Source: an uncultured Acidobacteriota bacterium
Lineage (GTDB): Bacteria > Acidobacteriota > Terriglobia > Terriglobales > Acidobacteriaceae
DNA length: 64,000 nucleotides
NCBI GenBank assembly: GCA_963756315.1
Contig: CAVWNI010000001.1
Coordinates: 48,801-112,800, forward strand
Direction: 5' to 3'
Shown: one piece after another, positions 8,778 to 55,660 of the stretch
Layout of the letters: each line of letters opens with the position of its first letter
How positions within the stretch are numbered: position 1 is the first letter of the stretch
Made by a program: the position numbers and the translations under genes
The notes under the pieces: model-generated
Told to the model about the DNA's origin: nothing
Database searches by the model: none
The model's input: only the letters and a program-made list of their open reading frames with translations

Positions 8778-9419
8778 CTATTTGTGCTTGAGTACTTTTC
8801 CAGTGTTGGCATCCACGTAGACAGCATAGCCGGCCTTGTCAGTTCCCCACACCAGGTACCAGACTGGTCCCTGGAATCTGAATGTGTCACCAAGTTCCAT
8901 TGTTGAGAGCGGCTTGTCTGGATTTTTCTTCAACCAATCCGCAGCATCCGTTGCGGCGGCCTGGTACGCGGCATCCGAATCGATGTTGAATTGCGAAGTG
9001 TCAATCGGCATGGCGTCGCGTGTTATGCCGCCCCAGGGCAGCGCGAGACCTGCCACCACTCCCTTATAAATGTCCGGCCCGGCGGCGATGGCGTAATCGT
9101 AAACCCGGTACTCCCGCTGGCTGGGCGAAGCAAATGTCGCCTCCCACATAGCTGCCTTGCCGGCCTCATTCTTGAATCCTGGGATTTCTTTTTCCGTGAC
9201 TCTGAGTGTCACGAGGTCGGGAGCCCAGTTGTGAGCGGACGTATACATCGGCCAAAATGCCGTCTTGGCAGGCACAATTTGCGGAGGTGCCGCGGGCTTG
9301 GCGGCCGATGCAGACTCCGTGCCAGCTGAGGGCGGGGTGGATGATTGCGAGCAGCCCGCCAAAAGCAGCACTGCAACGGCGATAGCACTTACCGCAGAAT
9401 GTTTGAGCAAAGCGCTCAT
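8778..9419 (-). CDS. Lipoprotein of unknown function (PepSY-like C-terminus?)
   Basis: Lipobox LLLAGC|SQSS, followed by an A/P/S-rich linker. The C-terminus WYLVWGTDKAGYAVYVDANTGKVLKHK resembles a PepSY-type beta-hairpin. GGAGG lies 6 nt before the ATG. Confidence 0.65.
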   Translation of the reverse strand: MSALLKHSAVSAIAVAVLLLAGCSQSSTPPSAGTESASAAKPAAPPQIVPAKTAFWPMYTSAHNWAPDLVTLRVTEKEIPGFKNEAGKAAMWEATFASPSQREYRVYDYAIAAGPDIYKGVVAGLALPWGGITRDAMPIDTSQFNIDSDAAYQAAATDAADWLKKNPDKPLSTMELGDTFRFQGPVWYLVWGTDKAGYAVYVDANTGKVLKHK

Positions 9420-16765: not shown

Positions 16766-17116
16766 ATGGCGGATGTGAAGCTCGACCTATTGCAAGGCAC
16801 TCTGGACTTGATGGTTCTGCAGACGCTGGCCGCCATGGGTTCCCTGCATGGTTACGGCATCGCGCGGCGCATTGAGCAGGTGAGCGGCGACGAGATTCTG
16901 CTGAACCAGGGCACCATTTACGCATCCCTGGTACGTCTGCAGCAGCGCGGCTGGATCTCCGCGCAATGGGGCACGTCCGACAACAATCGCAAAGCGAAGT
17001 ACTACGCCATTACGAAGAGCGGTCGCGGCCAGCTGGCCAAGGACTCGGCCTACTGGCATCGCTTGTCCAGCGTGATGGGTCGCGTGCTGGCGATGCAGAC
17101 GGAAGGAGAGCGGTGA
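16766..17116 (+). CDS. PadR-family transcriptional regulator (pair 1)
   Basis: MADVKLDLLQGTLDLMVLQTL...HGYGIARRIEQ...GTIYASLVRLQQRGWISAQWGTSDNNRKAKYYAITKSG is a canonical PadR winged helix. AGGAGA RBS is present. The stop overlaps the next start (gTGATGg). Confidence 0.9.
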   Translation: MADVKLDLLQGTLDLMVLQTLAAMGSLHGYGIARRIEQVSGDEILLNQGTIYASLVRLQQRGWISAQWGTSDNNRKAKYYAITKSGRGQLAKDSAYWHRLSSVMGRVLAMQTEGER

Positions 17117-19761
17117 TGGGCGCGATACGCGAAGCCAGCAACCGTGTGCGATCCTTCTTTCACAAGCAGCAGCGGGATGCGGAGCTGGATGCGGAAATCT
17201 CGACGCATGTTGAGCTGGCTTTCGAAGAAAATATGCGGCAGGGCATGCCGGAGGCGGAGGCCCGGCGGCGGGCGCTGGTGCGATTCGGCGGCGTGCAGCA
17301 GGCCAAGGAGCGGCAGCGTGAGGCGCGCGGACTGCCATGGCTCGACATCCTGCTGCAGGATGTACGCTACACATTGCGTACACTGGCCCGGGATCGTGGT
17401 TTCACCATTGTCGCCGTGCTGATTCTTGCGCTGGGAATTGGCGCCAATGTCGCCGTCTTCAGCGTAGTGGATACGATTTTGCTGCGACCCCTGCCGTTTC
17501 CCGAGCCGCAGCGGTTAGTCCGAATCCTGACAAAAAATACCACGGGCGGCGAATCCAGCCAGACCTATACCGTCGATGCCACCCAGGAAATTCAGCAACG
17601 CAACAGATCATTCCAAAGCGTTACTGGATATTTTGCTTTCACCTCCAGCGACAATTACAAGTTGACAGTAGGTCAAGGCCAGCCGGTACCTGTCACAGGC
17701 ATCCTGGTGATGGGGAATTTTTTTCAGACGCTTGGCGTCGAGCCTTTTCTGGGCCGTTTGTTTACTGCAGACGAGTGTCTGCCAAACAGCCGTCCCGCCG
17801 TGCTGCTGAGCTATGCCTTCTGGAAGCGGCAGTTTGGCAGCAATCGCGGCATCCTTGGCCAGGCCATCGATCTGAGCGGCACGCCGGTGACGGTCGTCGG
17901 CGTTCTGCCGGACAGTTTCGACTTTGGTTCGGTGTTTTCGCCGGGAGCGAAGGTCGACATCTTTACTCCGTTCATCATGTCGGACTTCGAGCATGACGGA
18001 AATGATCTGGCGCTGATGGGGCGTCTCAAACCGGGAGTGACGGTGGCCCAGGCACGAGGGGAAGCCGATCTGCTTTTCCCAACGCTCGACCACGATCTGA
18101 AACGTCCGCAGTGGACCGGAGGCTACGAAGGCCGGCTGCTTGGCATGAAAGAATACGTAAGCGGGAAGCTGCGCCGGCCGCTGATTGTGTTGTGGTGCGC
18201 GGTGGGCATGATCCTGCTGATAGTCTGCGTCAACCTATCCAATCTTTTATTGGCGCGAACTGCCGCGCGAAGCAAGGAATTCGCGATGCGCAGTGCACTC
18301 GGAGCGGGGAGAGGTAGACTCATTCGGCAGTTACTGACCGAGAGCCTCATTCTTTCCAGTGCCGGATCTTTCGTTGGCCTGGGCATTGCGTTTGTCGTCA
18401 TCGAGTTTCTCGCCCACCAGGGATCGATTGCACTCCCGCTGCTGAGCAGCGTTCGCATCGATGGTTCTGCGCTGGCGTGGACCGTAGCGATTGCCATTGT
18501 CACCGCCGCTGCGTTCGGTCTTGCTCCCGGATTGAAAATGTCCGCGGGTAATCTGCAGGAGACGTTGAAGGATGCAGGCAGCGGCGCAAGTGAGGGCCGG
18601 AAGCATGAGGGACTGCGTTCCGCGCTGGTCATCTCAGAGATCGCGCTGGCTTGCGTGCTATTGGTGGGTGCCGGACTGTTGCTGCGCAGTTTTCTGCACA
18701 TCCTGGACGTTAACCTCGGCTTTGAGCCCAGCCATGCCGCGGCGATCAGTGTGGATTACAACGACGGCGGCGATGCCGCAAAGAGAGGCGCGATCTGGCA
18801 GGAGATCATCCGCCGCGTCGAAGCAACTCCCGGCATTGAAACCGATGGCATCTCCGACAATCTGCCGCTGAGTCGAAATCGGAGCTGGGGTTTTCAAGCT
18901 AAAGGGCATATCTATCGCACTGGAGATCTTGAGGACGCGTTCGTGTTTATGGTTTCTCCGGGATACCTTCGCGCAATTGGCATGCACCTGCTCGAAGGGC
19001 GTGACATTCGCTGGTCCGACACCGCGACCAGCCAGAAGGTGATCATCATCAACGACGCCATTGCTCGCGGGCTGTGGCCGGGCCAGGATCCCATTGGGCG
19101 CATCGCGCTAATTGGCGGGACAGAGGCAACGGTTATAGGAGTGATTGAGGACGTTCAAGAAAGTAGTGTTGAAGGACAAGCTGGCTGGCAGGTGTATTTG
19201 CCCGCGACGCAGTTTGGACCGGACGGAGCGCAGCTGGTGATTCGTACCAAACTGCCGCCGGACGTGCTTGCGTCCAGCGTGATGACCATCTTGCGGCAAA
19301 TCAATCCTGGCCAACCGGCCACGGAGTTCCGCCCAATTCAGGGGCTGGTGGATCACGCAGTTTCGCCGCAGCGCTTTTTTGTTCTGTTAGTCGATATTTT
19401 TGCGGCTCTGGGACTGTTCCTCGCCTCGCTCGGCATCTATGGCGTCATTTCGTATTCGGTCACCCAGCGAACCCAGGAGATTGGCATCCGTATGGCGCTG
19501 GGCGCTTCGCGATCGCGGGTACAGCTGGGCGTGATCTGGAAGACGCTGCGGCTCGCCCTGTTGGGGATGCTCGCGGGAATTGCAGCATCTTTCATCGTGG
19601 CGCAGACGATTGCGACTCTCTTGTTTGGAACCGCCCCCACCGATCCGGTAACGTTTGCCGCGACGATTCTGATCCTCACGGCGGTTGCTTTCCTGGCGGG
19701 GTATATTCCCGCACGAAGAGCTTCCCAAATCAACCCCATGGTTGCGCTCCGCAACAACTGA
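17116..19761 (+). CDS. ADOP-type duplicated FtsX/MacB-like permease with N-terminal cytoplasmic prefix domain (pair 1)
   Basis: The ATG at 17116 overlaps the PadR stop by 1 nt. A roughly 80-aa helical prefix (ELDAEISTHVELAFEENMRQGMPEAEARRRALVRFGG) precedes DVRYTLRTLARDRGFT. It contains two [TM - periplasmic domain - 3 TM] units and ends in INPMVALRNN. Confidence 0.9.
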   Translation: MGAIREASNRVRSFFHKQQRDAELDAEISTHVELAFEENMRQGMPEAEARRRALVRFGGVQQAKERQREARGLPWLDILLQDVRYTLRTLARDRGFTIVAVLILALGIGANVAVFSVVDTILLRPLPFPEPQRLVRILTKNTTGGESSQTYTVDATQEIQQRNRSFQSVTGYFAFTSSDNYKLTVGQGQPVPVTGILVMGNFFQTLGVEPFLGRLFTADECLPNSRPAVLLSYAFWKRQFGSNRGILGQAIDLSGTPVTVVGVLPDSFDFGSVFSPGAKVDIFTPFIMSDFEHDGNDLALMGRLKPGVTVAQARGEADLLFPTLDHDLKRPQWTGGYEGRLLGMKEYVSGKLRRPLIVLWCAVGMILLIVCVNLSNLLLARTAARSKEFAMRSALGAGRGRLIRQLLTESLILSSAGSFVGLGIAFVVIEFLAHQGSIALPLLSSVRIDGSALAWTVAIAIVTAAAFGLAPGLKMSAGNLQETLKDAGSGASEGRKHEGLRSALVISEIALACVLLVGAGLLLRSFLHILDVNLGFEPSHAAAISVDYNDGGDAAKRGAIWQEIIRRVEATPGIETDGISDNLPLSRNRSWGFQAKGHIYRTGDLEDAFVFMVSPGYLRAIGMHLLEGRDIRWSDTATSQKVIIINDAIARGLWPGQDPIGRIALIGGTEATVIGVIEDVQESSVEGQAGWQVYLPATQFGPDGAQLVIRTKLPPDVLASSVMTILRQINPGQPATEFRPIQGLVDHAVSPQRFFVLLVDIFAALGLFLASLGIYGVISYSVTQRTQEIGIRMALGASRSRVQLGVIWKTLRLALLGMLAGIAASFIVAQTIATLLFGTAPTDPVTFAATILILTAVAFLAGYIPARRASQINPMVALRNN

Positions 19762-24607: not shown

Positions 24608-26063
24608 AACCACCGGATTCATGGAATATTCGCGCGAGCTTCCCGAGCGCCGTCCGGTCGAGGAACGCGTCAACGACTGGGTTGAGATTTATCGTGCGTT
24701 TCCGGAAGAGAAGCAACAGCAGCAGGCCGCGCGATGCATGGACTGCGGAGTTCCCTTCTGCCATACCGGCTGCCCGGTCAACAACATCATTCCCGACTGG
24801 AATGACCTGGTGTATCGCGGACGATGGAAAGAAGCGATACGGCGTCTGCACGCCACCAATAACTTTCCTGAATTTACCGGGAGAATTTGTCCTGCGCCAT
24901 GCGAGGCGGCATGCGTGCTTGGCATCAATGCCCCGGCAGTGACGATCAAGCAGATCGAAAAAAACATCATCGAGCATGCCTACGAGGAAGGCTGGGTCCA
25001 TCCGGAGCCGCCGTCATTTACCACGGGAAAAGCGGTCGCGATCGTAGGTTCGGGCCCGGCTGGGCTGGCGGCGGCACAACAGCTTCGCCGCGCGGGCCAT
25101 GCGGTCACGGTATTTGAGAAGGCCGACCGCATTGGCGGATTGATGCGCTACGGAATTCCTAATTTCAAGCTGGAGAAAACGGTCCTCGATCGGCGTCTCG
25201 AGCAAATGCAGGCGGAAGGCGTCGAGTTCGTCACCGGCGCGCATGTCGGACAGAACCTGCCGATTGCAGACCTTCAGCGAGACTTTGACGCCATTCTGCT
25301 GGCCGGCGGGGCGGAACAGCCGCGCGATCTTGCCGTGCCGGGCCGGGAGCTGAAAGGCATTCATTTCGCCATGGAGTTTCTGCCGCAGCAGAATCGCCGA
25401 TGCGAAGGCGACGCAGTACCGGAAAGCGAAGCCATCCTGGCGACCGGCAAGCGAGTCGTCATCATCGGCGGCGGGGATACAGGCGCGGATTGCCTGGGGA
25501 CCGCGCACCGGCAGAAGGCGCTGTCCGTCGAGCAATTTGAAATCATGCCGGCGCCGCCCGCCACACGCTCACCGCTGACGCCCTGGCCGTTGTGGCCGAT
25601 GCAGCTCCGCGTGGAGGGCGCGCATGAGGAAGGCGGAAAGCGGAGCTGGAGTCTGGCCACGACGAAGTTTACCGGAGACGATCGCGGCAACGTGAAGCAG
25701 CTGCACGGAGTCCAAGTCGGCTCTCCACCCAAGTTCGAGCCGCAACCCGGCAGTGAATTTGTCATGGAAGCTGACCTGGTGTTGCTTGCCATGGGCTTTT
25801 TGGGCCCGGTTCGCAACGGCCTGATTGAGAAGCTGGGAGTGGTCCTGGATCCCAGGGGAAATGTGGCGACCAACGCCGATTACATGACCTCGGTTGAGGG
25901 TGTGTTTGCCGCCGGAGATCTGCGGCGGGGACAATCACTGGTTGTGTGGGCCATCTCCGAAGGGCGGAAAGCGGCTGCGTCCATCGATCAGTATTTGACT
26001 TCTTTTCCAAACGTTGTGGCAGCCAGCTCCGAAGCAGCCGTCAAGGTCAATTCCCGCGGATAA
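24600..26063 (+). CDS. gltD: Glutamate synthase small subunit (NADPH-dependent)
   Basis: [11 protein letters not shown] and CPAPCEAAC Fe-S cysteine clusters, plus the dinucleotide fold [14 protein letters not shown]. The ATG overlaps the gltB stop (ATGGGTAA). Confidence 0.95.
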
Positions 26064-26156
26064 GCGAGCGCCACAACAGTGGTCCGTGCCGGCGTTCGTT
26101 GGCCTGTCCGCGATTCTCAGGCGGCGGTAGAATGATTGTCGTCAGAGGTTCGGGGC

Positions 26157-26489
26157 ATGTTGGTGGAGATCGCCAAGCCGTTTGCCTTGCTGCTTTGCAT
26201 GGTCTCGTTGTGCGCCCTTTTTTTTACCGCGTTTCTGGCTCCCTCGGGCGATCTGCAGCAGCGAATCTTAGACTCCCTGGAAATGCTGGCGCTGGCCGGC
26301 GGAATTTCCCTGATGAGCGGATTGATTTTTCGCGACTCGGAACCCGAACATTCCACCGACCACGCGCGGCTCGCAGCCACCCTTCCCATACAGGTGTTCT
26401 GCTGGGCAACGGGCACGATGGTCATCCTGTTCGTCGTTTCGTGGTATTTAGAAACTCACTGCATATTCTTCCGGAATATCAACTTCTGA
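26157..26489 (+). CDS. Small hypothetical membrane protein (3-4 TM)
   Basis: The hydrophobic ORF MLVEIAKPFALLLCMVSLCALFF... has GC-rich third codon positions and a GAGG about 8 nt upstream. I recognise no family. Confidence 0.45.
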   Translation: MLVEIAKPFALLLCMVSLCALFFTAFLAPSGDLQQRILDSLEMLALAGGISLMSGLIFRDSEPEHSTDHARLAATLPIQVFCWATGTMVILFVVSWYLETHCIFFRNINF

Positions 26490-26511
26490 AGCTGAGCGCG
26501 GAGAGAGGCTG

Positions 26512-27987
26512 CTACGGCTCGGTGCGTAGAAGCGTGACATTGGACATGGTTGGAAGGCGGACCTCGGCACGGCACCCGGGTGCATCGTCACGGTTGGCCA
26601 AAGTCAGCGTGCCTCCATGGGCTTCAATGATTTGCAGCGCAAGCACTAATCCAATTCCAGTGCCGCCGGGCTTGGTGGTATAAAACGGAACGAAAAGATT
26701 GGCTGGATTCGCCAGTCCAATTCCATTGTCTTCGACGCGAATCACGACGCTGTCGGGCCGCCTTTTTCCTACGACCGTTACATGCGCCGCCAGTTTATCC
26801 TGGTGAGCCTGCATGGCCGCGTCGGTCGCATTGCGAATCAGATTGATCAGCGCCTGTTCCAGCTGGGCCGCGTCGGCGTGAACATGGGTATCTTCCGCGA
26901 CATCGAGCGTGACTTTCAGCCTGGTCTCAAGATGGCAGACGCGCTCCAGTAGAGGAACCGCGGGAAACGTCGTCTTGACGGGGGCAGGCAGTTTGGCGAG
27001 CTGGCTGTACGCCTGCAGAAAACGGTTCAACGACTCCGCTCTCTCTTCGATGATCGCCAGCCCATGCTCCATGTCTACCGGATTTACGGCCCGATTCTGA
27101 GGATCGCTGGCGCCGGTCCAGCCAGTGGGCTGCGGAGCCGGGATCCATTGCACCCGCGAGCGAAGGCTGCTGGCGATCGATTTGATGGGTGTCAGAGAGT
27201 TATTGACCTCATGAGCCAGCACACGAATCAACCGCTGCCACGCCTGACGTTCCTGTTCCCGCAACACTCCGCTCACATCGGAAAGCAGCAACAGAGTGTG
27301 AGGCATACCGTTCTGATAAAACTTGCTGCGCCTCACCATCCATCGACCTTCTCGCCCATGCATGGCCAGGGAAACGACGCTGTTGTCAGGACAATCCAGA
27401 ATCTCCATCAGTCCGAGAGAATGCGCGCTTTGATGTAAAGTCGAATCTGCCGGAAGCTGAAGCATCTTCAGCGCCGCCGGATTGGTCAACTGCAAATCCG
27501 AGGCGGAATCGAAGGCGAAGACGGGCAGATCCATGGTTTCGACGACGCGCTCCAGCAGAGCAAACGTCTCCGATTCTCGATGCCGGCGCGTACGAAGATC
27601 GCCGGCCAGCTCATTGATCTGCGCGGCCAGGTCGCCGAGGGCATCTCCCTGTCCTATCTCGCGTGCGCGAAAGGAATACTCATTTTCCCGCAACGCCGAG
27701 ACAACGTTGGAGAGCGTTTGCAATGGTCGCACAATATGCTGGAACACCGCCGAACCCAGCGATGCCAGAAGGATGACAAGAACAGACAGGACACACAGCC
27801 AGATCAGGATGGAGGCATGCCACATATACAGGGCGACACACCCTAACGCGAGGGTTGGGAGCGCGAGCAGCACGAGCAATCCGGCCAGGCGAAGCTCAAA
27901 ACGAAGACGCGGAATTTTGAAGCCGATGGCAGGACGAGACGGCGGAGAAGAGGAATTTCGTTCACGATTCGCCGCATTAGATACCAT
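26512..27987 (-). CDS. Sensor histidine kinase with two closely spaced TM segments (no periplasmic domain), HAMP, PAS-like, HisKA and HATPase_c
   Basis: TM1 and TM2 are separated by about 3 residues (YMW-HAS-ILIW). H-box is LAHEVNNSLTPI. G-boxes are DNGIGL and GGTGIGL. The start overlaps the regulator stop by 11 nt. Confidence 0.9.
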   Translation of the reverse strand: MVSNAANRERNSSSPPSRPAIGFKIPRLRFELRLAGLLVLLALPTLALGCVALYMWHASILIWLCVLSVLVILLASLGSAVFQHIVRPLQTLSNVVSALRENEYSFRAREIGQGDALGDLAAQINELAGDLRTRRHRESETFALLERVVETMDLPVFAFDSASDLQLTNPAALKMLQLPADSTLHQSAHSLGLMEILDCPDNSVVSLAMHGREGRWMVRRSKFYQNGMPHTLLLLSDVSGVLREQERQAWQRLIRVLAHEVNNSLTPIKSIASSLRSRVQWIPAPQPTGWTGASDPQNRAVNPVDMEHGLAIIEERAESLNRFLQAYSQLAKLPAPVKTTFPAVPLLERVCHLETRLKVTLDVAEDTHVHADAAQLEQALINLIRNATDAAMQAHQDKLAAHVTVVGKRRPDSVVIRVEDNGIGLANPANLFVPFYTTKPGGTGIGLVLALQIIEAHGGTLTLANRDDAPGCRAEVRLPTMSNVTLLRTEP

Positions 27988-29374
27988 ACTTTTCCATCCG
28001 CCGGTACAACGCTCCTCGGCTCAAGCCCAGAGCGTCGGCGGCCTGGCTCACGTTGCGATCATGCCGAGCCAGAGCTTTACGGATCAGGATACTCTCGACG
28101 GCTTCCAGACTCATCTCGTCGATGTCATCGGCGGGCTTCGCGGTCTGCAGATTCAAATCGCCAGCCTGAATGCGGCGGCCGCGGCTCATGAGCACCGCGC
28201 GTTCCATGGAATGTTCGAGCTCCCTGACATTGCCGGGCCAGGAGTGTTCGAGTAGGGCGTGGAGCGCGGTGGCGTCGAGCCCCTCGATCTGCTTTCGATA
28301 ACGCGCGGCGTAGCGAGCCAGAAAGTGCGCCGCCAGCGCGGGGATATCCTCGCGTCTTTCTCTTAGCGGAGGCAGGTGAATTTCCACGGTATTCAGCCGA
28401 AACAGCAGATCGGGCCGAAAGCGGCCCTCCGCACACTCGTGGGTCAGATCGGCGTTGGTTGCAGAGAGTACCCGGACATCGATCCGGCGAACGCGCGACG
28501 AGCCGACCGGCTCCAGTTCTCCTGCCTCCAGAACGCGCAAAAGTTTTGCCTGCTGGCGGATCGGAACATTGGCGATTTCATCCAGAAATAAGGTTCCGCG
28601 ATCGGCCAGTTCAAAGCGACCAATGCGGTCGGCACGGGCGTCGGTAAACGCTCCTTTGACATGGCCGAACACTTCACTTTCAAACACGCCCTCTGAGAGC
28701 GCACCCGTATTCACGGCAATCCATGGGTGGTCGGCGCGCGCAGATAATGCGTGGAGGGTGTGCGCGACAATTTCTTTTCCGGTGCCGTGCTCCCCGGTGA
28801 TGAGCACATTGGCATCCGAGGGACCCACGCGGGTCATCGCATCGAGAACCGGCTGCATGGCCGGCGATTCAGCAATCATCTCCGGTCTGTCGGTGGCCCT
28901 TAGAAGCTGATTTTCCGCCTCCAGCAGCTGGGCGCGACGCAACGCTCGGTAGAGCGTCACCTGAGTCTGCAATACGGTCACCAAGCGGGCGTTTTCCCAA
29001 GGCTTGGTGATGAAGTCTCGAGCGCCGCGGCGCATCGCTTCGACCGCCAAGTCTACGCTGGCCCAGGCGGTCATCACAATGACAGGAAGCTGCGAATCGA
29101 TCTCCAGCACCTGCCGCAACAGTTCCAATCCTTCGTGGCCCGAGGTGGTGTCGCGGGTGTAGTTCAGGTCCATCAGCACGGCATCATACGGTCGATTGCG
29201 GAGTGCACGCAGCGCCGCCTCAGGAGAGCCGACGGTATCCACGTGGAAGCCCGCGGGCTGGAGCAATAATGTAAGCGCTTCAAGAATTTGCGGCTGGTCG
29301 TCGGCCGCAAGCACGCTGGGCAGCGTGCCTGCATCTACTTTCTTCCGATCGAGAAGCACGGGTTGTTCCGCCAT
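27977..29374 (-). CDS. Sigma-54-dependent response regulator (NtrC/AtoC family: REC, AAA+, Fis-type HTH)
   Basis: REC domain (LAADDQP...AVLMDLNY...KP). Walker A GEHGTGKE. The GAFTDA loop in ESEVFGHVKGAFTDA is diagnostic of sigma-54 activators. C-terminal HTH is NVSQAADALGLSRGALYRRMEKYGI. Confidence 0.93.
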   Translation of the reverse strand: MAEQPVLLDRKKVDAGTLPSVLAADDQPQILEALTLLLQPAGFHVDTVGSPEAALRALRNRPYDAVLMDLNYTRDTTSGHEGLELLRQVLEIDSQLPVIVMTAWASVDLAVEAMRRGARDFITKPWENARLVTVLQTQVTLYRALRRAQLLEAENQLLRATDRPEMIAESPAMQPVLDAMTRVGPSDANVLITGEHGTGKEIVAHTLHALSARADHPWIAVNTGALSEGVFESEVFGHVKGAFTDARADRIGRFELADRGTLFLDEIANVPIRQQAKLLRVLEAGELEPVGSSRVRRIDVRVLSATNADLTHECAEGRFRPDLLFRLNTVEIHLPPLRERREDIPALAAHFLARYAARYRKQIEGLDATALHALLEHSWPGNVRELEHSMERAVLMSRGRRIQAGDLNLQTAKPADDIDEMSLEAVESILIRKALARHDRNVSQAADALGLSRGALYRRMEKYGI

Positions 29375-29416
29375 GGCAGCCCCTCGCTTAGAGTATCGTG
29401 ATTCCGCCCCATACTC

Positions 29417-31420
29417 TTACGGTTGGCGAACCTCGCCGGTTTTTGCGACTACGATGGAGACGCCCATTCGCTCCAGCGTTTCTCCGGTGGCGCGGTCGAT
29501 ATCCACCTTGGCCTTTTCATCGGCTGTCTTTGCGGCCACGAGAGTGGATTCGGCAATAGCCAGATCGTGTTCCGCGACCAGCGCGTCGTAGGTGGACTTA
29601 GCACCGAGTTTCTGTTCCCGTTCGGTGATGTCGAATGTGCGTTGAGCCAAATCGCGGGCCTTCTGCACGGCATCGACACGGGCCTGGGCCTGTTGATATG
29701 CGAACTGAGAGTTGCGCACGTCGAAACGGATGCTCTTCTTCTGTTCTTCGAAGGAGATTTGTTTCTGCCGATATTCCAGCGAGGCGCGGAACTGATCTGC
29801 CTTGGCGACACGATTGCGAAGAGGGATCTGCAGCGTCATGCCAACTTGATATTCCGGCGAAGAGTAGTTGAAGGTGTTTCTGAACATGCCGCCGAATCCT
29901 GCGGGAAGATTGGTGACGCACTGGTCGCCCAGGCTGCAGTTCGGGTTTGCCGGTCCTGCGCTACCTGCGCCCTCATAGAAGCCATAGGCATTTAACGTAG
30001 GCAACAGCTCGTTGCGGATCGATTTGAGGCTCATCTGCGCCACCTGCATCGCAAGCTCGTCCTCGGAGACATCAGGCCGATTCTTTTCGGCCTCGGCGAT
30101 TAGATCGTCAATCGGCATGGAAGCGTTGGGGTCGGGTGGGCCGACGCGATCCAGAGGAATGACGGACATCTCATCGATTCCAGGATTGTCGCTCTTGGTG
30201 AGGGCGTTGATGATGAGCAGCTCATTCAAGCGGAGATTGGAACGCGAAATCGTAAGGTCACCCTCACTGGTAGCCACATCTGACTCGTCCTTGATAACCT
30301 GAATGGCCGGAATGGCCTGCAACTCAAGCTGCTTCTGGTCATCCTGAAGAGTCTTATGGGCAAAAGCGACCAGCCGCTCCTTGATCAGTTCGTCTTCATA
30401 GGCATCCACAAGGTCCCAGTAGATATTTTCGACCTGCGTGATTGTCGCAATCACCTGCGAACGAAAGGCCAGATCGGTGATCTGCATATTTTTTTTGGCG
30501 ATACGCATATAGCGCTCGTTAGTGGCGATACCAAAACCGGCGAGCAACTGTTGTGTGAGTTTCACCTGGAGATTCGAGTACAGCGTGGGATTGATGGCTT
30601 CGTAGGGGCTGTTATTAGCGAAACGCTGGCCCACATAGTTGATGTCCAGGCCTGTTCCCAGCGGAAAGTTCTGGGTGTAACTGGTCAGCGCTTCAATGGT
30701 GTTCTCCTTGAAAATGGGAACACCCACGGAGAAAGGGTTCGTTTCCTGGATTACGGTGTGATCCACGTAGCCCTGGAAAGTCACGTAGGGATCGAAGGAA
30801 GCGACCGCGGTTCCGCTGCCGAGGGTCGAAGTTACGATACCGCCTGCGCCGGCAGCCGCCGATCCTGAACTGGCGCCTGCACTGGAACTTCCTCCCGAGA
30901 AGCCGCCCTGCGTGGACGACTGCACGATTGCTGTATTGACACCACGCGCGCTGCCGCCCGCCTTTGTGCGTGCATAGTCGGTTTGCGCAATGGGGAAGTT
31001 ATAGCGGAAGTAGGCAAGATCCAGATTGTTCTCGATGGCAAGAGCGATCGCGTCACTCAACGAGATGTACAGCTTTCCATCACGGATCAAGCTTTGAAGG
31101 CGCGGCGAGTTGTTTAAGTCCAGCGGAGGAGCATCCGTGGGCCTATATGGCGACAATGGATTGCGCGAGTGCGGGAGGGGCACATGAAAAGGCTGTTGTG
31201 GAGCAAACGACAGCTGCTGCGTCTGTTGAATTTGTTGGGCCAGAGAAGGAGACGCGGCCGACTGAGGGTTCGCCGTGGGCGCGGGAGCCTGCGGCACAGC
31301 CGAAGTTGTTTGCGAATCGGCACCCGCTGCCGGCGGTACTGGCTGCGTGAAAGCCACCGTCCCGGTTGCGAATAAGCCTACAACCACGCCGATTGTCAGC
31401 AGGTCTTTCCAGTTGGACAT
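29417..31420 (-). CDS. TolC-family outer-membrane efflux duct with P/Q/A-rich N-terminal extension
   Basis: Start taken at MSNWKDLLTIGVVVGLFATGTVAF (signal-like), 11 nt after the ATPase stop. It has two TolC repeats (LSLSDAIALAIENNLDLA..., LRNRVAKADQFRA...AKVDIDRATG). The ORF track extends to 31501. Confidence 0.85.
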   Translation of the reverse strand: MSNWKDLLTIGVVVGLFATGTVAFTQPVPPAAGADSQTTSAVPQAPAPTANPQSAASPSLAQQIQQTQQLSFAPQQPFHVPLPHSRNPLSPYRPTDAPPLDLNNSPRLQSLIRDGKLYISLSDAIALAIENNLDLAYFRYNFPIAQTDYARTKAGGSARGVNTAIVQSSTQGGFSGGSSSAGASSGSAAAGAGGIVTSTLGSGTAVASFDPYVTFQGYVDHTVIQETNPFSVGVPIFKENTIEALTSYTQNFPLGTGLDINYVGQRFANNSPYEAINPTLYSNLQVKLTQQLLAGFGIATNERYMRIAKKNMQITDLAFRSQVIATITQVENIYWDLVDAYEDELIKERLVAFAHKTLQDDQKQLELQAIPAIQVIKDESDVATSEGDLTISRSNLRLNELLIINALTKSDNPGIDEMSVIPLDRVGPPDPNASMPIDDLIAEAEKNRPDVSEDELAMQVAQMSLKSIRNELLPTLNAYGFYEGAGSAGPANPNCSLGDQCVTNLPAGFGGMFRNTFNYSSPEYQVGMTLQIPLRNRVAKADQFRASLEYRQKQISFEEQKKSIRFDVRNSQFAYQQAQARVDAVQKARDLAQRTFDITEREQKLGAKSTYDALVAEHDLAIAESTLVAAKTADEKAKVDIDRATGETLERMGVSIVVAKTGEVRQP

Positions 31421-31431
31421 TCCTAGGCTCC

Positions 31432-32145
31432 TCACGCTTTTCCCTCTCCTGTCTGCTGCAACTCGGGGCGTGCGGAATCTGAAACGATCCATCCGTCGCA
31501 CAGCTGGACGGTACGCGTCCCATAGGTGGCATTCAGGTCGGAATGGGTGACCTGTACAATCGTGGTTCCTTGCTGGTTCAGTTCGCGAAATAGCTCCATG
31601 ATCTCCTTCGCCTGGGTGGAATGCAGATTGCCGGTCGGCTCATCCGCCAGCAACAATGCAGGCTTGTGGATGACGGCGCGGGCGATGCCGACCAGTTGCT
31701 GTTGGCCGCCTGAAAGCTGGGACGGGAACAGATCCTTCTTGGCGACCATACGGAAGCGATCCAGAACGTCCGCCACCATTGCCTGCCGCTCAGCGGACGG
31801 AATGTTCTTGTATGACAGGGGCAGGTCAATGTTCTCGGCCACCGTCAAATCATCCAGCAGATGATAGCTTTGGAAAACCATGCCCATGCGGCGGCGGGAG
31901 AGATCCGCGCGCTGCTTACGGCTCAGCTTGTGCACGGCCTGCTCTCCGAACCAATACTCCCCTTGCCAGTCGTCATCCAGCAGTCCAAGGATATTCAGAA
32001 GTGACGACTTGCCTGATCCCGAGGGGCCCATGATGGTGACAAACTCGCCTTCGAGGATTTCCATGTGGATACGTCGTAGCACCCACGATTGCCCGACGCC
32101 GGACTTGTAGCTTCGGTCGATATTTTTCAATTGAATCATTCTCAT
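31432..32145 (-). CDS. ABC transporter ATP-binding protein, MacB/LolD-type (ATPase 2)
   Basis: Walker A GPSGSGKS, Q-loop VFQSY, signature LSGGQQQ(L), Walker B LLLADEPT and H-loop VTHS. The start is ATG 32145 or 32139 (MIQLKNIDRSY), after AGGTGAG. Confidence 0.9.
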   Translation of the reverse strand: MRMIQLKNIDRSYKSGVGQSWVLRRIHMEILEGEFVTIMGPSGSGKSSLLNILGLLDDDWQGEYWFGEQAVHKLSRKQRADLSRRRMGMVFQSYHLLDDLTVAENIDLPLSYKNIPSAERQAMVADVLDRFRMVAKKDLFPSQLSGGQQQLVGIARAVIHKPALLLADEPTGNLHSTQAKEIMELFRELNQQGTTIVQVTHSDLNATYGTRTVQLCDGWIVSDSARPELQQTGEGKA

Positions 32146-32222
32146 CTCACCTGTAAAAACTTTGTTGCTGTATGAAATTGCGCGATGGCTCAGTGCCTCT
32201 GGGTACGCCGCTTGCATGGGAA

Positions 32223-44670: not shown

Positions 44671-47199
44671 TTATTCAGAACGTAATGCCTGCATGGGATC
44701 GACCGAGGCCGCGCGGCGCGCGGGCAAAAGACAGGCCGCCGCCCCGGCAACCAGTAGCGACGCAGCCGCGGCGGCCGCAATCCACGGATTGAATGCGTTC
44801 ACCTGAAATAGAAGGCTTCCGATCAGTCGTGCAAAACCAAGCGCAACCGCGACCCCGATGACAGTCCCTGCGATCACTGGACCCAGACCTTCGCGAAGGA
44901 CCTGGGAATAAATGTTGGCGCGCTGTGCCCCCAGCGCCATGCGCAGGCCAATTTCCTGCCGCCGCTGCGCCACGGAATATGTGACCACGCCATACACACC
45001 CAGCCCGGCAAGCAGCCAGGCGCTGACAGCAAATAGCAGGAGCAAATCCATTTCAAACCGACGGGTCGCGACGGAGTCGGCCACTACACCGCCCAGCATA
45101 CGAACGGTGGGTACGGAAACCGCGGGATCTACGCTCCAGATGGTTTTGCGGATCGCGCTGGCCATCTCCGCCGGGTCTTGCCGGGTGCGAACTAAAAATC
45201 CTGCGGACGCATCCGCGCGATACCAGTACGGGACATACACCATCATGGGATCGGGCTTGGCGAGCGTTACGGTCCTGGCGTCACCCACGACGCCGATGAC
45301 GGTAAATTCCGTCAATTTGGAATCCGCAGGATCGCCCCGATCGAACCGCTGACCGATTGGGTTCCTGCCCGGCCAAAGCGCTTTAGCTGTGAGTTGGGAG
45401 ACGAGTGCGTCGTTCTTTCCCTCGTCGCTGCCACTCAAAAAGCGACCGGCAATCAGCGGCAAATGGATGGTCTCAAAATATCCAGGGCTGACCCAGCGAA
45501 ACTGCGCCAATGGCAACTGCATAATTGCCCGTGCATCGCCTGGAAGGCGAACCCAGTCGCCCCAATCATTACCGGTGAGCGGCAACACGCTTACGATCGC
45601 CGCGTGCTCCACGCCAGGGAGGCGCGTGAGCCGGTCGAGCGCCCTTTTGTAAAAGGCAGCATGATCCTGCTGGTCGGGGTAATACTTATAGGGCAGATAG
45701 ATCTGTACGGTCAGCACCCGCGCAGTGTCAAAGCCGCGACCGATATGTAAGAGCCGGAACAAGCTGGTCGTCAATAAACCCGTGATAAGCACCAACGCCA
45801 CGCTGATCAAGACCTCCGCCGCAACCAACGTCTTGCGCAACCGCTTGCCTGCGGGCGATTCACTGGCGGAACGGGAATCGCTGCGCAATGCCGCCTGCGG
45901 CTGGGTATGCCAACTGATCCACGCTGGCGCGACGCCCGCGAGCAGGGTGGCCGCCCCAGCCAGCAGGACTGCAAAGCCGGCACCTGCCCAGTCGATGTGC
46001 AGGTTTCCGCGGAAGTTCAGCGCGGCAGGCAAAAAGCGCTGAAGAATTGGAACGGTCACGACAGCCAATAGAATTCCCAGCGCGCCGCCAATGCCGGCAA
46101 GAACGCCGGCCTCCCTGATTGCAACCCGCGCCAGGTCGGAGCGACTGGCCCCAAGTGCCGCTGCGACCGCCAACTCCTGCCGTCGGCCAACGGCGCGAGC
46201 CAGCAATAGATTTGCGATGTTGATGCAGCCGACGAACAGCAATCCAGCAACCGCGCCTAACAAGATACCGAGCGACTTGCCGTTGTTGCCCACAAGATAT
46301 TGCTGGAATGGCGTGAACACAGCGGAGAGTGTCCCATGTTCATCCGCAGGCAGGCTGGCCGCGATGGTGTGCTGCAGCGCATTGATTTCCGCGTTTGCCT
46401 GAGCAACCGAGACGCCGGGCTTCAACCGCGCCAGTCCAAAGTAATTGAAGTCTCCCATGGCTTCCTGCAGCCGGTCTTTTGAAAACGCCATCGGCACAAT
46501 CGCTTCGGTCGATTCTGACCGACTGGTGACATCTTGACTGGCGATCGTATGTATATTCGGCAAACGAAACGATGGCGGCATGACGCCGATCACGGCGTAA
46601 GGATAGCCATCGAGCGTAATGGTCTTGCCAAGGATGCCGGGATCACTGTGAAACTGCCGCTTCCATAAGTCATGCATCAGTACGACGACACGCTCATGCC
46701 CGGGTTGATCTTCCTGTGCGGTAAAAGTGCGGCCAAGCTGTGGGTTTGCATCGAGGACGGAAAAGATGGCGGAGGTGGCGCTCAACTCGCCCACCTGGAG
46801 CGGATGCCCGCCACCGCCAAGGGGAACGTTGCCCTGCTGCATGACAGCCATCGACTGCAGGCTGTGGCTATGCTGCTGCCAGTTCATGAAATGGTTGGCG
46901 TTCATGGGCAGCGTGGGGTAAAGGTCCCGCAACTCGGCGACCTGCTCTTCCATCACCACCAGCTGCTCCGGATGCGGATACGGCAGCGGCTTCTTCAGCA
47001 CATCGTAGACCAGGGTAAAGATTGCAGTGGTCGCGCCAATCCCCAGCGCCAGCGTCAGCACAGCGGTCGCCGTAAATCCGGGCGACTTGCGCAGCTGCCG
47101 CCATGCATAGCGAAGATCGGCCCAGACCCCCTCACTGCAGCAATTCCCTTTCCGCGGCCAATTTGCGACGCAGATCCTCTTCGGATACGACCTGGCCAT
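44671..47199 (-). CDS. ADOP-type duplicated FtsX/MacB-like permease P1 (start problematic)
   Basis: ...[19 protein letters not shown]... ends in DPMQALRSE. The only canonical in-frame start near the 5' end is ATG 47199, which overlaps ATPase 1 by 68 nt. See the finding on the G5 tract at 47127-47131. Confidence 0.75.
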   Translation of the reverse strand: MARSYPKRICVANWPRKGNCCSEGVWADLRYAWRQLRKSPGFTATAVLTLALGIGATTAIFTLVYDVLKKPLPYPHPEQLVVMEEQVAELRDLYPTLPMNANHFMNWQQHSHSLQSMAVMQQGNVPLGGGGHPLQVGELSATSAIFSVLDANPQLGRTFTAQEDQPGHERVVVLMHDLWKRQFHSDPGILGKTITLDGYPYAVIGVMPPSFRLPNIHTIASQDVTSRSESTEAIVPMAFSKDRLQEAMGDFNYFGLARLKPGVSVAQANAEINALQHTIAASLPADEHGTLSAVFTPFQQYLVGNNGKSLGILLGAVAGLLFVGCINIANLLLARAVGRRQELAVAAALGASRSDLARVAIREAGVLAGIGGALGILLAVVTVPILQRFLPAALNFRGNLHIDWAGAGFAVLLAGAATLLAGVAPAWISWHTQPQAALRSDSRSASESPAGKRLRKTLVAAEVLISVALVLITGLLTTSLFRLLHIGRGFDTARVLTVQIYLPYKYYPDQQDHAAFYKRALDRLTRLPGVEHAAIVSVLPLTGNDWGDWVRLPGDARAIMQLPLAQFRWVSPGYFETIHLPLIAGRFLSGSDEGKNDALVSQLTAKALWPGRNPIGQRFDRGDPADSKLTEFTVIGVVGDARTVTLAKPDPMMVYVPYWYRADASAGFLVRTRQDPAEMASAIRKTIWSVDPAVSVPTVRMLGGVVADSVATRRFEMDLLLLFAVSAWLLAGLGVYGVVTYSVAQRRQEIGLRMALGAQRANIYSQVLREGLGPVIAGTVIGVAVALGFARLIGSLLFQVNAFNPWIAAAAAASLLVAGAAACLLPARRAASVDPMQALRSE

Positions 47200-47866
47200 C
47201 GAACAAATGGACTTCGCGGTCTGCCAGCTTGGCGAAGCGCGGATCGTGGGTGACCATGCAGATGGTCGCGCCATCTTTGTGGAGTTCTTTCAGCAACTCC
47301 ATCACCGCTTCGCCATTGCGAGAGTCGAGGTTTCCAGTCGGCTCGTCGGCCAGCAGGATGGAAGGTGACCCGGCCAGGGCGCGAGCCACGGCGACGCGCT
47401 GCTGCTGGCCGCCGGAGAGCTGCGAAGGATAATGTCGCAGCCGATGCGCCATACCCACGCGGCTCAATGCTTCATCCACCCGCCGCTTACGCTCGACGGA
47501 GGGCATTCCGGAGCGATAGGTCAGCGGCAGTTCGACATTTTCATATACGGTCAGGTCGCCGATCAGGTTGAAACTCTGGAAGATGAATCCAATCTCCTGA
47601 TTGCGAATGCGCGAACGCTCTGCAAAGCTGAGATTCTCTACCGGGCGCGTATTCAGCAGGTAGCTGCCGCCACTCGGCGTATCCAACAGTCCCAGGATAG
47701 AGAGCAGGGTGGACTTGCCGCAGCCTGAAGGTCCCGAGATGGCAACGTATTCTCCGCGGTCGATGTTGAGGTGAATGCCCGCCAATGCGTGAGTTTCAAT
47801 CTCATCGGTGTAGAAAACTTTGGTGAGCGCTTCTATATGAATCAGCGATTGCTCGGTTGCTGCCAT
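47132..47866 (-). CDS. ABC transporter ATP-binding protein, MacB/LolD-type (ATPase 1)
   Basis: MAATEQSLIHIEALTKVFY... with Walker A GPSGCGKS, signature LSGGQQQRVAVARAL, Walker B LLADEPT and H-loop VTHD. GAGAGGA RBS is present. The ORF track extends to 47935. Confidence 0.9.
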   Translation of the reverse strand: MAATEQSLIHIEALTKVFYTDEIETHALAGIHLNIDRGEYVAISGPSGCGKSTLLSILGLLDTPSGGSYLLNTRPVENLSFAERSRIRNQEIGFIFQSFNLIGDLTVYENVELPLTYRSGMPSVERKRRVDEALSRVGMAHRLRHYPSQLSGGQQQRVAVARALAGSPSILLADEPTGNLDSRNGEAVMELLKELHKDGATICMVTHDPRFAKLADREVHLFDGQVVSEEDLRRKLAAERELLQ

Positions 47867-47952
47867 GCGTGGGTCCTCTCTCGAACGAATGAACTGGATG
47901 CACTTCTGTATGTATCTACGTAATCTTTGAGACAAAGGTTCTCAGTCGGCTA

Positions 47953-49212
47953 TTAATCCAGCCGAATGCGGTCAACATTGTCCCAACGCGACATGTCGGA
48001 AAGGATAACGGTATCGCCCTCTTTCAGGCCGCCGAGGATTTGAATTTCATTCACTGACGCTCGACCGACTCTTACCGGTACGCGCGTCGCATAATTGCCG
48101 CTGGGGTCCAGCTTGAACAGGCTGATCGTGGAGTTTTCATTTCCGAACGCTGGGCGTCCGACATGCAAGACATCGTGCAACCGCTGCAGATCAACGGTTC
48201 CGTCCACGCTCAAGTCGGGCCGAGCTCCTTCGGGCAACGGTCCATCCAACTGTACGTCGACGGTAACGGTTCCGTTCACGACGGCCGGATTAATTCGCGT
48301 GACCGAACCCGGAACGATTCCGTTGTGGGTATCAATTTCGGCGGGCTGACCGATCTCGACATCATGGGCCTGGGTCTCGGCGATCTCCAACTGCGCCTTC
48401 AATTGGTTGGGCTGGATAATCTGGGCCAGCTCAGTCCCTACCGGAACATGCTGCCCGACCTGCAGGGGCATCTGCACCAGCACTCCCTCGATTCCAGCGC
48501 GAACGTTTAGCGCATCGACTTCGCGCTGCAACAGCTGTGCAAGCGCGCTCGCCTGCTGCACCTTCGCCTTTTGCACGGCGAGTTGGGTCTCGAGAGCTTT
48601 CTGGTTGATGGTGATCTCTTGCTTCTCCAGGTCTTCGCGCGTCGTCAACGCATCGGCTTTACCCTGGGAATCGCTGTACGACAACCCGCTAATCACACCA
48701 AGCTTGTACAGGGCTTGATCGGTCCGCGCTTGCAGTTGCGCCTGCTGGTACTGTGCATGAATGTCGGCAGCGGTGGCACGCCGGTCCATCAAGCTACTTT
48801 CCAGTGATACCTGGGTATTGTGGTAATCGGCCTGGGCCTCATTCAGCTGCAGGGCGGCATCCTGCGCCTCCTGCATCAGCTGTTGATTCGTCAATCGCAG
48901 GATGACCGTATCCGGATGCACCAGGGCGCCGGGCAGCTTGAAAATACTTACGACTGTGCCGTCGGTCTCTGCGGGAATGGAGCGGATGCGATCTTCGCGC
49001 GGCACCAGGGTTCCAAGACCGCGCACCTGGCGAATCATGTTGCCGCGTTTTACCGTGTCAGTCCAGACCGTGTTCCGGTCGACCGTAGGGGCAGCCGGCT
49101 TGAGCCGCATCACTAAGAGTGTGACCGCAGCTAGCAGAACCAGTCCAATCGCGGACCAGAGAACCTGGCGGCGAAGTTTTCGTTTTTTCAAATCGGGGCG
49201 CGCGATATCCAT
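47953..49212 (-). CDS. HlyD/MacA-type periplasmic adaptor (membrane fusion protein)
   Basis: N-terminus is basic then TM (KKRKLRRQVLWSAIGLVLLAAV). It has a biotinyl-lipoyl-like region, long coiled-coil heptads (QLNEAQADYHNTQ...LQREVDALN) and a beta-barrel C-terminus. Start is at ATG 49212, and a TTG 21 nt downstream is also possible. Confidence 0.85.
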   Translation of the reverse strand: MDIARPDLKKRKLRRQVLWSAIGLVLLAAVTLLVMRLKPAAPTVDRNTVWTDTVKRGNMIRQVRGLGTLVPREDRIRSIPAETDGTVVSIFKLPGALVHPDTVILRLTNQQLMQEAQDAALQLNEAQADYHNTQVSLESSLMDRRATAADIHAQYQQAQLQARTDQALYKLGVISGLSYSDSQGKADALTTREDLEKQEITINQKALETQLAVQKAKVQQASALAQLLQREVDALNVRAGIEGVLVQMPLQVGQHVPVGTELAQIIQPNQLKAQLEIAETQAHDVEIGQPAEIDTHNGIVPGSVTRINPAVVNGTVTVDVQLDGPLPEGARPDLSVDGTVDLQRLHDVLHVGRPAFGNENSTISLFKLDPSGNYATRVPVRVGRASVNEIQILGGLKEGDTVILSDMSRWDNVDRIRLD

Positions 49213-49225
49213 TATTGATAGACCT

Positions 49226-49241
49226 AGCATGTAGCGAGCCA
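49226..49241 (-). promoter_or_regulatory. Candidate sigma-54 (-24/-12) promoter TGGCTCG-N4-ATGCT for the pump cluster
   Basis: Minus strand reads ttTGGCTCGCTACATGCTaggtctatcaataATG. GG and GC have the canonical spacing. It has 2-3 mismatches to TGGCACG-N4-TTGCW. Confidence 0.35.
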
Positions 49242-49451
49242 AAGGAACTAACGATGAAACTGATTGCAATCAATGGTTTATGGAACATGAAAGGCCCCTG
49301 GTTTCGCTCGAACTGTCCATTATTGAAACAGGGTGTTCATTTTCGGACACCGATTTAGGACAGAGGGGAGCGTGCGGACAAAGGAAGGAGTCCCATTGCC
49401 AGAAAGGGCAGTTGACAACGAAGCCGAATTGAGACTAGCTTCTCCCATAAG

Positions 49452-49796
49452 ATGTTTAGGGAAGAAAACTCGGAAGCAGGCGACCTGATCCAAGGCACGC
49501 TGGAAATGCTCGTCTTAAAGTCGCTGGCGCGCGGTCCCCTGCATGGATATGCGGTAGCCGAGTGGATCCATCAAACATCGCAGCAACTGCTCAAGGTAGA
49601 GGAGGGTGCACTCTATCCGGCATTACACAGGCTGGAACTTCGCGGACTTCTCCAGGCGAAATGGGGGGCATCGGAAAACAATCGGCGTGCCAAGTTCTAT
49701 CAACTCACGACTGAGGGCAAGAAGCGTCTGAATGCCGAATCGCAACGCTGGGCGCGGCTGTCGGCGGCGGTCGCATTTGTTATGCAGGCATCCTGA
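49452..49796 (+). CDS. PadR-family transcriptional regulator (pair 2)
   Basis: GDLIQGTLEMLVLKSLARGPLHGYAVAEWIHQ...GALYPALHRLELRGLLQAKWGASENNRRAKFYQLTTEG. Confidence 0.9.
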   Translation: MFREENSEAGDLIQGTLEMLVLKSLARGPLHGYAVAEWIHQTSQQLLKVEEGALYPALHRLELRGLLQAKWGASENNRRAKFYQLTTEGKKRLNAESQRWARLSAAVAFVMQAS

Positions 49797-49807
49797 GGTG
49801 ACTTGCC

Positions 49808-55269: not shown

Positions 55270-55271
55270 GG

Positions 55272-55643: not shown

Positions 55644-55660
55644 TCGACCCAAGTATGCCC

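Follow-up and report, generated by a model that had tools for sequence, protein, structure and literature searches.

Histidine kinases that perceive their stimulus within the membrane are generally small proteins in which two transmembrane (TM) helices are joined by a short linker and which have no cytoplasmic sensor domain. To our knowledge, signalling that is coupled to a transporter has so far been a speciality of the Firmicutes. The ADOP permeases constitute one of the largest paralogue families in the Acidobacteriota, a dominant soil phylum, and we know of no substrate, partner ATPase or regulator for them. In other phyla an enrichment of sigma-54 promoters before genes for FtsX-type permeases has been reported independently, a 2025 survey having found -24/-12 promoters before COG0577 and COG1136 genes in Bacteroidia, Opitutia and Gammaproteobacteria and having termed this a new regulatory axis (PMC12316311). 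The present analysis concerns a two-component system, a sensor histidine kinase (HK) and a response regulator (RR), encoded in a stretch of 64,000 nucleotides (the window) from an uncultured member of the Acidobacteriaceae (assembly GCA_963756315.1, contig CAVWNI010000001.1, positions 48,801 to 112,800). It is argued here that the pair is very probably the dedicated and autoregulated switch of a tripartite MacB-type (ADOP) ABC export system, on the grounds of conserved synteny, co-occurrence and a conserved promoter and enhancer before the pump genes.

The genes in question lie on the minus strand in the order, 5' to 3', periplasmic adaptor (MFP), ATPase 1, six ADOP permeases, ATPase 2, TolC-like outer-membrane factor (OMF, the duct), RR and HK. 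The original prediction, which was made from the sequence of the window, had placed the kinase and its partner at the 3' end of a MacB-superfamily pump cluster and this is borne out, the adaptor, two ATPases, six ADOPs and duct all preceding the pair in the same orientation; the parts by which a tripartite ABC pump of the MacAB-TolC type is recognised, namely an adaptor, a MacB_PCD/FtsX permease, an ABC ATPase and an OMF, are encoded together. The RR (27977..29374, minus strand, 465 aa) is an NtrC-family sigma-54 enhancer-binding protein with a REC domain (residues 21-135), an AAA+ domain (166-333) whose GAFTGA-type loop reads GAFTDA, a lid and a C-terminal Fis-type helix-turn-helix (HTH_8, 422-463), exactly the partner that had been predicted, as judged from its sequence and from Pfam and NCBIfam profiles (Response_reg 6.9e-23, Sigma54_activat 1.8e-61, HTH_8 7.1e-12, with AAA_lid_14 also matched). 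The HK gene (26512..27987, minus strand) overlaps that of the RR by 11 nt. The RR gene in turn starts 42 nt past the duct gene, no terminator is predicted on the minus strand in the gap, and we infer that the operon forms one transcript. Most of this gap is filled by a 7-bp inverted repeat (AGAGTAT ... ATACTCT, 14-nt loop, 29390-29417, minus strand) that begins within the duct stop codon and is followed by no T-run; the resulting hairpin could be a processing or attenuation element.

In the proposed wiring the operon would be transcribed from a sigma-54 promoter placed immediately before the start codon of the MFP gene, and the phosphorylated RR would bind a TGTCC-N6-GGACA palindrome ~127 bp upstream and activate sigma-54 RNA polymerase, thereby increasing the expression of both the pump and the two-component system to which it belongs, in a positive feedback. 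Given that the HK has no periplasmic domain, it must pick up its signal either within the membrane or on the cytoplasmic side, and the signal would then pass through the HAMP and PAS domains to the DHp/CA core. The rpoN gene is present in this genome.

The synteny was established from a scan of one genome per species, which yielded at least 587 relatives of the HK, the best 80 loci being fetched. An RR gene lies upstream of the HK gene on the same strand in 79 of the 80, the exception (L060) being a locus that begins inside the kinase gene, and RR and HK directly abut in all these loci except L029 and L030. Long open frames of ~900 aa at some HK orthologues were considered as RR-HK fusions and rejected, as they proved to be alternative-frame stretches over a separate RR gene. 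MacB-type pump genes adjoin the pair on the same strand at every locus with enough flank (76/76), the usual order being MFP - ATPase1 - (ADOP)n - ATPase2 - OMF - RR - HK. Within the 10 kb fetched per locus, operons contain anything from 0 permeases to at least 3, and the window has six; 17 related operons (among them L009, L012-L017 and L022) have no permease between the two ATPase genes, and at several of the 17 an ADOP gene is found divergently upstream, which at L009, L015 and L017 has its own near-perfect sigma-54 promoter (e.g. TGGCACGACAGTTGCT) beside the shared enhancer. A clear HK orthologue, defined as E <= 1e-38 in a bimodal distribution of HK scores, was detected in ~100 of an even sample of 301 Acidobacteriota genomes, about a third, and the presence of MFP and HK orthologues agreed in 19 of 21 genomes checked, one of the exceptions being a contig end. 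A second score tier, at 24-32% identity, represents a paralogue family in which a hairpin-HAMP-PAS kinase and an NtrC-type regulator are likewise encoded beside MFP-ATPase-FtsX pump genes, with the two-component genes at the operon 3' end in 6 of the 10 loci fetched and a sigma-54 promoter before the adaptor gene in 7 of the 8 examined; most of the paralogue loci with a promoter have a similar tandem enhancer, TGTYCG-N4-CGRACA, at ~20-bp spacing.

The promoter was sought by anchoring orthologous loci on the conserved MFP N-terminus MDIxRP, which gave a set of 26 sequences, namely 25 related loci with a recognisable MFP start together with the window. In all 25 related loci and in the window a TGG-N10-GC element (mostly TGGY...TGCA/T) begins 28-31 nt before the MFP ATG, whereas the sequence flanking it is not conserved among these loci and the same arrangement occurs before only 0.87% of all their ATGs. 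The window's predicted -24/-12 promoter, TGGCTCGCTACATGCT (49226..49241, minus strand), stands in this conserved position, with the C at -12 lying 15 nt before the A of the MFP ATG; transcription is consequently predicted to start ~3 nt before the ATG at 49212 and to give a near-leaderless mRNA. The corresponding distance is 14-17 nt in every one of the 25 related loci (L003-L078) and the window, all of which use ATG, so that these mRNAs are predicted to be leaderless or to have a leader of at most 5 nt; in the paralogue family and at the other targets in this genome leaders are of ordinary length, 25-40 nt. The element has the GG/GC spacing of a sigma-54 promoter, is conserved among orthologues and lies upstream of the target genes, the start site being a prediction only. 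The only match to a looser pattern, at 9309-9324, was rejected as a promoter, since it lies inside a lipoprotein open reading frame (ORF) and is a chance match.

Upstream of the promoter in the window lies an enhancer (UAS) site, TGTCCGAAAATGAACA (49334..49349, minus strand), a TGTCC-N6-GGACA palindrome whose centre is ~126 bp upstream of the predicted start, and 3 nt after it there is a degenerate second site, tgtttcaataatggaca (49314..49330, minus strand). Of the 26 sequences, 25 carry the 16-bp palindrome with no more than one mismatch and the last (L078) has it in the same place with two, against a background of 0.037 sites per kb. Its centre falls at -126 to -129 from the predicted start in 23 of 25 cases and at -104 in the other two (L037 and L055). 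In five loci a weaker copy with two mismatches follows ~20 bp downstream of the main site, and a clear tandem site at a distance of ~20 bp is present at the other targets in this genome. Adjacency and co-conservation suggest that it is the neighbouring RR that binds TGTCC-N6-GGACA. Together with the synteny and the co-occurrence, the conserved promoter and enhancer before the operon bring the pump cluster into the regulon of the RR, as had been anticipated, at the level of prediction.

A number of observations weigh against so simple a scheme. A leader of ~3 nt is unusual for a sigma-54 promoter, and the promoter of the window has two mismatches to the consensus TGGCAC-N5-TTGCW and was missed by the strict search, which gave no match anywhere in the window. 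The genome encodes ~10 other homologues of sigma-54 activators, and the assignment of the enhancer to the RR consequently depends on adjacency and co-conservation only. A scan of 26000-30000 for sigma-70 promoters and terminators produced nothing above shuffled expectation, and in that interval no basal promoter for the RR and HK genes was found. There are also exceptions to the association itself in two genomes, G279 (L096 and L097) and G269 (L095), which are of two types: an RR-HK pair that stands by itself, a long way from the related MFP-ATPase genes, and an MFP-ATPase-ADOP unit that lacks such a pair. The MFP gene at L097 has a possible -24/-12 element (TGGCAGGAGCCGTGCC) and no clear enhancer.

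The pump parts were identified from profile matches and all are encoded on the minus strand. The HlyD/MacA-type adaptor (47953..49212) begins MDIARPDLKK, and its start at ATG 49212 is fixed by the conservation of the N-terminal MDIxRP. ATPase 1 (47132..47935) has canonical motifs and is followed by the permeases P1 (44671..47274, longest ORF, 848 bits), P2 (42155..44659, 925 bits), P3 (39714..42143, 832 bits), P4 (37220..39700, 890 bits), P5 (34707..37208, 758 bits) and P6 (32223..34706, 832 bits), all of them duplicated FtsX/MacB_PCD proteins of 809-867 aa; the bit scores, 758-925 across the array, are those against TIGR03434 (ADOP family duplicated permease) and all exceed its curated cut-off of 622.3 bits. 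The true start of P1 is uncertain, as its longest ORF overlaps ATPase 1. ATPase 2 (31432..32217) and the OMF (29417..31501, longest ORF) complete the set, the latter overlapping ATPase 2 by 70 nt, so that its true start is probably further downstream. The two ATPases are unequal in a conserved manner: every one of the 63 orthologues of ATPase 2 carries the non-canonical signature LSGGQQQL (Arg to Leu), and the D-loop has a His (NLHS/NLHT) in 61 of them and a Gln in the remaining two, whereas all 34 orthologues of ATPase 1 keep canonical motifs. Such an asymmetry points to a heterodimeric motor that would match the two unequal halves of the duplicated permease.

When the genome was searched for tandem enhancer sites with a -24/-12 element downstream of them, three further places beyond the pump operon were revealed. 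Two of these precede lone ADOP genes, at C9:224934-227635 (starting near 225100) and C9:400889-403573 (starting near 401060), and the third precedes a gene for a 621-aa Trans_reg_C + AAA_16 (STAND-type) regulator at C7:26352-28395 (near 26530), and all three genes are predicted to be additional members of the regulon. The genome contains 31 ADOP genes, of which six form the array, two lie behind these sigma-54 promoters, 15 behind PadR genes and eight elsewhere. In a maximum-likelihood tree of the ADOPs the array forms one or two groups and the two sigma-54 'orphans' are placed far off among PadR-linked sisters, and it follows that the mode of control has been switched repeatedly. The idea that the sigma-54-controlled ADOPs form one clade, which would have suggested a shared kinase-binding surface, was rejected on the basis of this tree; the sigma-54-controlled permeases of this genome share only ~30-35% identity.

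Several other features of the ADOP genes were apparent. Alignment of the 15 PadR-linked ADOPs to the array permeases begins 70-160 residues into the frame, as expected of an N-terminal extension. PadR-ADOP pairs occur in the window at 16766-19761, 49452-52516 and 52606-55652, and a PadR + ADOP pair is transcribed divergently from the MFP operon. The two ATPases of the pump operon are the only ones encoded beside ADOP genes in this genome, another MFP-ATPase pair, with no adjoining ADOP, being found at C9:797104-799418. Two ADOP pairs are near-identical, C2:2316-5000 with C9:306164-308305 and C6:459814-462513 with C6:462942-465596, the branch lengths in the tree being about 0.01, and 0.07-0.09; these are possibly very recent duplications or, in the case of the C2/C9 pair only, an assembly repeat.

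An important consideration in attempting to establish what this switch responds to is the layout of the kinase, which was examined by means of Pfam, hydropathy, alignment and an AlphaFold2 model built on a 25-sequence alignment (mean pLDDT 69). The HK is a single-copy protein of 491 aa and consists of a cytoplasmic N-tail with an RLRFExRL motif, TM1 (~33-56), a HAS turn, TM2 (~60-82), HAMP (84-135), PAS (144-240), a DHp domain with H259 and a variable loop (282-302), and a CA domain (339-480). The original prediction had described two hydrophobic segments separated by HAS, and these are present letter for letter in the ORF; its view that the kinase lacks a periplasmic sensor domain is upheld by both hydropathy and the modelled topology, neither of which has a periplasmic loop. 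A Kyte-Doolittle scan gives a single unbroken hydrophobic block at ~33-82 and no second membrane segment, and the model has a helix at 28-54, a turn at 55-59 and a helix at 60-100 that continues into HAMP, the turn being 3-5 residues by the two methods. Because basic residues stand before TM1 and HAMP comes after TM2, the modelled topology is N-in/C-in, with essentially nothing exposed to the periplasm. Beyond TM2 the model contains a second HAMP helix, a five-stranded PAS fold (156-237, pLDDT 74-87), DHp helices at 239-281 and 303-331 around H259, and then the CA domain; of the HAMP-like, PAS-like, H-box and ATPase regions first noted, the ATPase is recovered by Pfam (HATPase_c 4e-17), the PAS fold and DHp are real in the model, and the Pfam matches to HAMP, PAS and HisKA are all sub-threshold. 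The loop-less hairpin is retained in all 25 aligned homologues and also in the paralogue family, and is for that reason a family trait rather than a matter of chance. The HK therefore has the two TM helices and short linker of an intramembrane-sensing histidine kinase and lacks the other hallmarks of that class, small size and the absence of a cytoplasmic sensor domain.

The sequence of the hairpin is another matter. Identity to distant orthologues is 25% in TM1 and 10% in TM2, compared with 66% in HAMP, 48% in PAS and 66-78% in DHp; with the N-terminal tail and the DHp loop set aside, the hairpin is the least conserved region of the kinase. Within the PAS domain, residues 176-212, comprising the helices and the G-beta strand that usually line the ligand pocket, have a conservation of 0.55 as against 0.75-0.82 elsewhere in it; invariance is confined to NPAA and DVS, which are generic transmission motifs, and no cofactor motif was recognised in this domain. 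An invariant 'E-Y-S-F-R-A-R' in the HAMP connector was entertained as a special docking motif and dropped, since it matches the ordinary GDLxxR consensus, which we take to be that of the Pfam HAMP profile. Searches of the PDB by sequence and by fold returned generic PAS/HAMP kinases only and no Bce kinase, the Foldseek matches being WalK, VicK, LOV-FixL chimeras and ZraS.

As to the stimulus itself, there is a weak lean, to be taken as tentative, towards some form of sensing that is coupled to the pump through contact of the HK with a conserved pump part, perhaps the adaptor or the ATPases, and not necessarily with a permease. In its favour, there is no external domain in any homologue from either of the two paralogue families, and the pair almost never leaves the pump. 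These same facts, that the kinase is devoid of a periplasmic domain throughout and, in both of the deep paralogue families, is always linked to pumps of the FtsX/MacB fold, could also be accounted for by strict flux sensing of the Bce type, in which the HK would dock by its TM hairpin on one or more ADOP permeases, report their transport activity and be unable to sense alone, and for which the packing of the two-TM + HAMP kinase BceS against the TM helices of the permease BceB provides a precedent (PMC10314905; PMC4513084). This version is nevertheless distinctly unlikely. The HK has a conserved PAS domain and BceS has none; its hairpin is the least conserved of the folded regions; the permeases per operon range from 0 to at least 6; and the permeases that are regulated in this genome, with no more than ~30-35% identity, are polyphyletic, from which it follows that one sequence-specific TM interface is improbable. 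The same four points temper any scheme in which the transporter acts as the sensor. It may be, alternatively, that the HK acts as a diderm, sigma-54-wired counterpart of a Bce kinase by docking not on one permease but on the invariant 'engine' of the pump, that is the adaptor and the unequal ATPases 1 and 2. This more specific form of pump coupling is at present improbable; were it true, the HK would integrate the load of many interchangeable ADOPs, including the lone ADOPs elsewhere in the genome, and the 'orphan' look of a family of 31 genes with only one adjoining ATPase pair would be explained.

Sensing need not involve the pump at all. The PAS domain may bind a small molecule, either a pump substrate or a stress metabolite, with the hairpin serving as an anchor only, as was allowed for in the original prediction, and this is an alternative that, while unlikely, has to be taken seriously. 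A well-predicted PAS fold stands between HAMP and DHp, the closest structures (WalK, VicK and the LOV-FixL chimeras) are those of PAS-containing kinases, and the hairpin evolves in the manner of a plain anchor. It is difficult, however, to reconcile with this that the residues expected to line the pocket are the least conserved part of the domain and that what is invariant is generic and devoid of a recognised cofactor motif, and an anchor-only role would leave the HAMP domain directly after TM2 unexplained. Another suggestion, for which LiaS- and DesK-type kinases serve as models, is that the hairpin detects the state of the bilayer, namely perturbations of thickness or packing, or lipid II-type intermediates, caused by membrane-active compounds. 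Conservation of a hairpin-HAMP architecture but not of its TM sequence would suit a physical rather than a sequence-specific cue, and antimicrobial peptides and detergent-like compounds are the substrates with which the pump family has been connected (through the naming of COG0577, as quoted in PMC12316311). This proposal, which is made by analogy, explains the strict coupling to one type of pump no better than the other models and is improbable. Finally, the JGI names of homologues ('NtrY' and 'nitrogen fixation/metabolism regulation' kinase) might be taken to mean that the pair is a nitrogen or redox regulator of the NtrY/NtrX type that neighbours the pump by accident. NtrY has a larger N-terminal membrane domain, as compared with the two TM helices of the HK. 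The NCBIfam NtrX model, for which the cut-off is 600, gives 318.6 bits, none of the kinase equivalogs attains its own threshold, pump synteny is near-universal and the enhancer-promoter pair fronts pump and permease genes, and an accidental neighbourhood is therefore scarcely credible.

The value of the locus lies in what it supplies for the ADOP permeases. Literature searches found no study of these proteins or of this two-component system. The operon places ADOPs in a complete pump context of adaptor, two ATPases and duct, it furnishes them with a dedicated regulator and with a readable enhancer (TGTCC-N6-GGACA) and promoter, and it offers a predicted set of targets that includes two 'orphan' ADOPs in this genome. 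With pump context, regulator and target set in hand, the family becomes experimentally approachable in culturable carriers such as Silvibacterium bohemicum S15 (L028) and Edaphobacter aggregans DSM 19364 (L055). The system would also constitute a clean test for transporter-coupled signalling in diderm bacteria with a sigma-54 output.

The described systems that come closest each share a part of this arrangement. The BceRS-BceAB modules of the Firmicutes (PMC4513084; PMC10314905; PMC11009047) resemble it in having a two-TM kinase with almost no external loop and with HAMP directly below the membrane, and in the genetic association of the kinase with an ABC transporter of the FtsX/MacB fold (type VII), the genes of that transporter being what the system regulates. 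The regulator, however, is of the OmpR type in BceR and an NtrC-type sigma-54 activator here, and the input region of a Bce kinase consists of TM helices and HAMP only, whereas in the HK a PAS domain is interposed between HAMP and DHp. BceB has a single large extracellular domain. It is moreover a 10-TM protein (PMC10314905), in contrast to the 8-TM duplicated ADOPs with their two MacB_PCD and two FtsX modules. The acidobacterial pump is tripartite, with an adaptor and a TolC-like duct in a diderm host, and its two-component genes lie inside the operon that they are proposed to induce, with positive feedback. Since the regulator belongs to another family, the permeases are built differently, the kinase has an additional domain and the host lies outside the Firmicutes, the system is not a Bce module, and the short TM1-TM2 loop is the only one of the Bce traits tested that it shares.

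The pump itself is close to MacAB-TolC and other MacB-type tripartite ABC pumps, with which it has in common an HlyD-type adaptor, a MacB_PCD+FtsX permease, a MacB/LolD-like ATPase and a TolC-like duct. It departs from them in that the ATPases are separate polypeptides, where that of E. coli MacB is fused, and are two conserved unequal paralogues, in that the permease consists of one chain with an internal duplication, its copy number running from 0 to at least 6 in an operon, and in being under sigma-54 two-component control. NtrY/NtrX has the same HAMP-PAS-HisKA-HATPase order and an NtrC-family partner; the present proteins score far under the curated cut-offs for that system, the kinase has two TM helices only and the context is a pump rather than nitrogen metabolism. 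PilS-PilR, in which PilS, with six TM helices, detects pilin inside the inner membrane and has a sigma-54 activator as its partner in the control of pilin expression, is similar in coupling an NtrC-type sigma-54 output to intramembrane perception of a machine component, as is proposed for the HK, and it is thus a diderm precedent for the proposed combination; no ABC pump is involved there, and the ancestry is shared only at the general level of kinase and activator families. The parts of the system are familiar, and the link between sigma-54 and FtsX-type permeases had already been glimpsed. Apparently undescribed so far are the acidobacterial operon type, the enhancer with its fixed geometry, a sigma-54 promoter predicted to leave the mRNA almost without a leader, two ATPases that are unequal, and a regulator whose predicted reach extends to 'orphan' ADOPs. 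The 2025 survey makes no mention of Acidobacteriota, of a kinase, of an enhancer or of operon structure (PMC12316311), and to the axis that it recognised the present locus adds a defined activator, a predicted enhancer, a fixed geometry and a genome-level set of targets.

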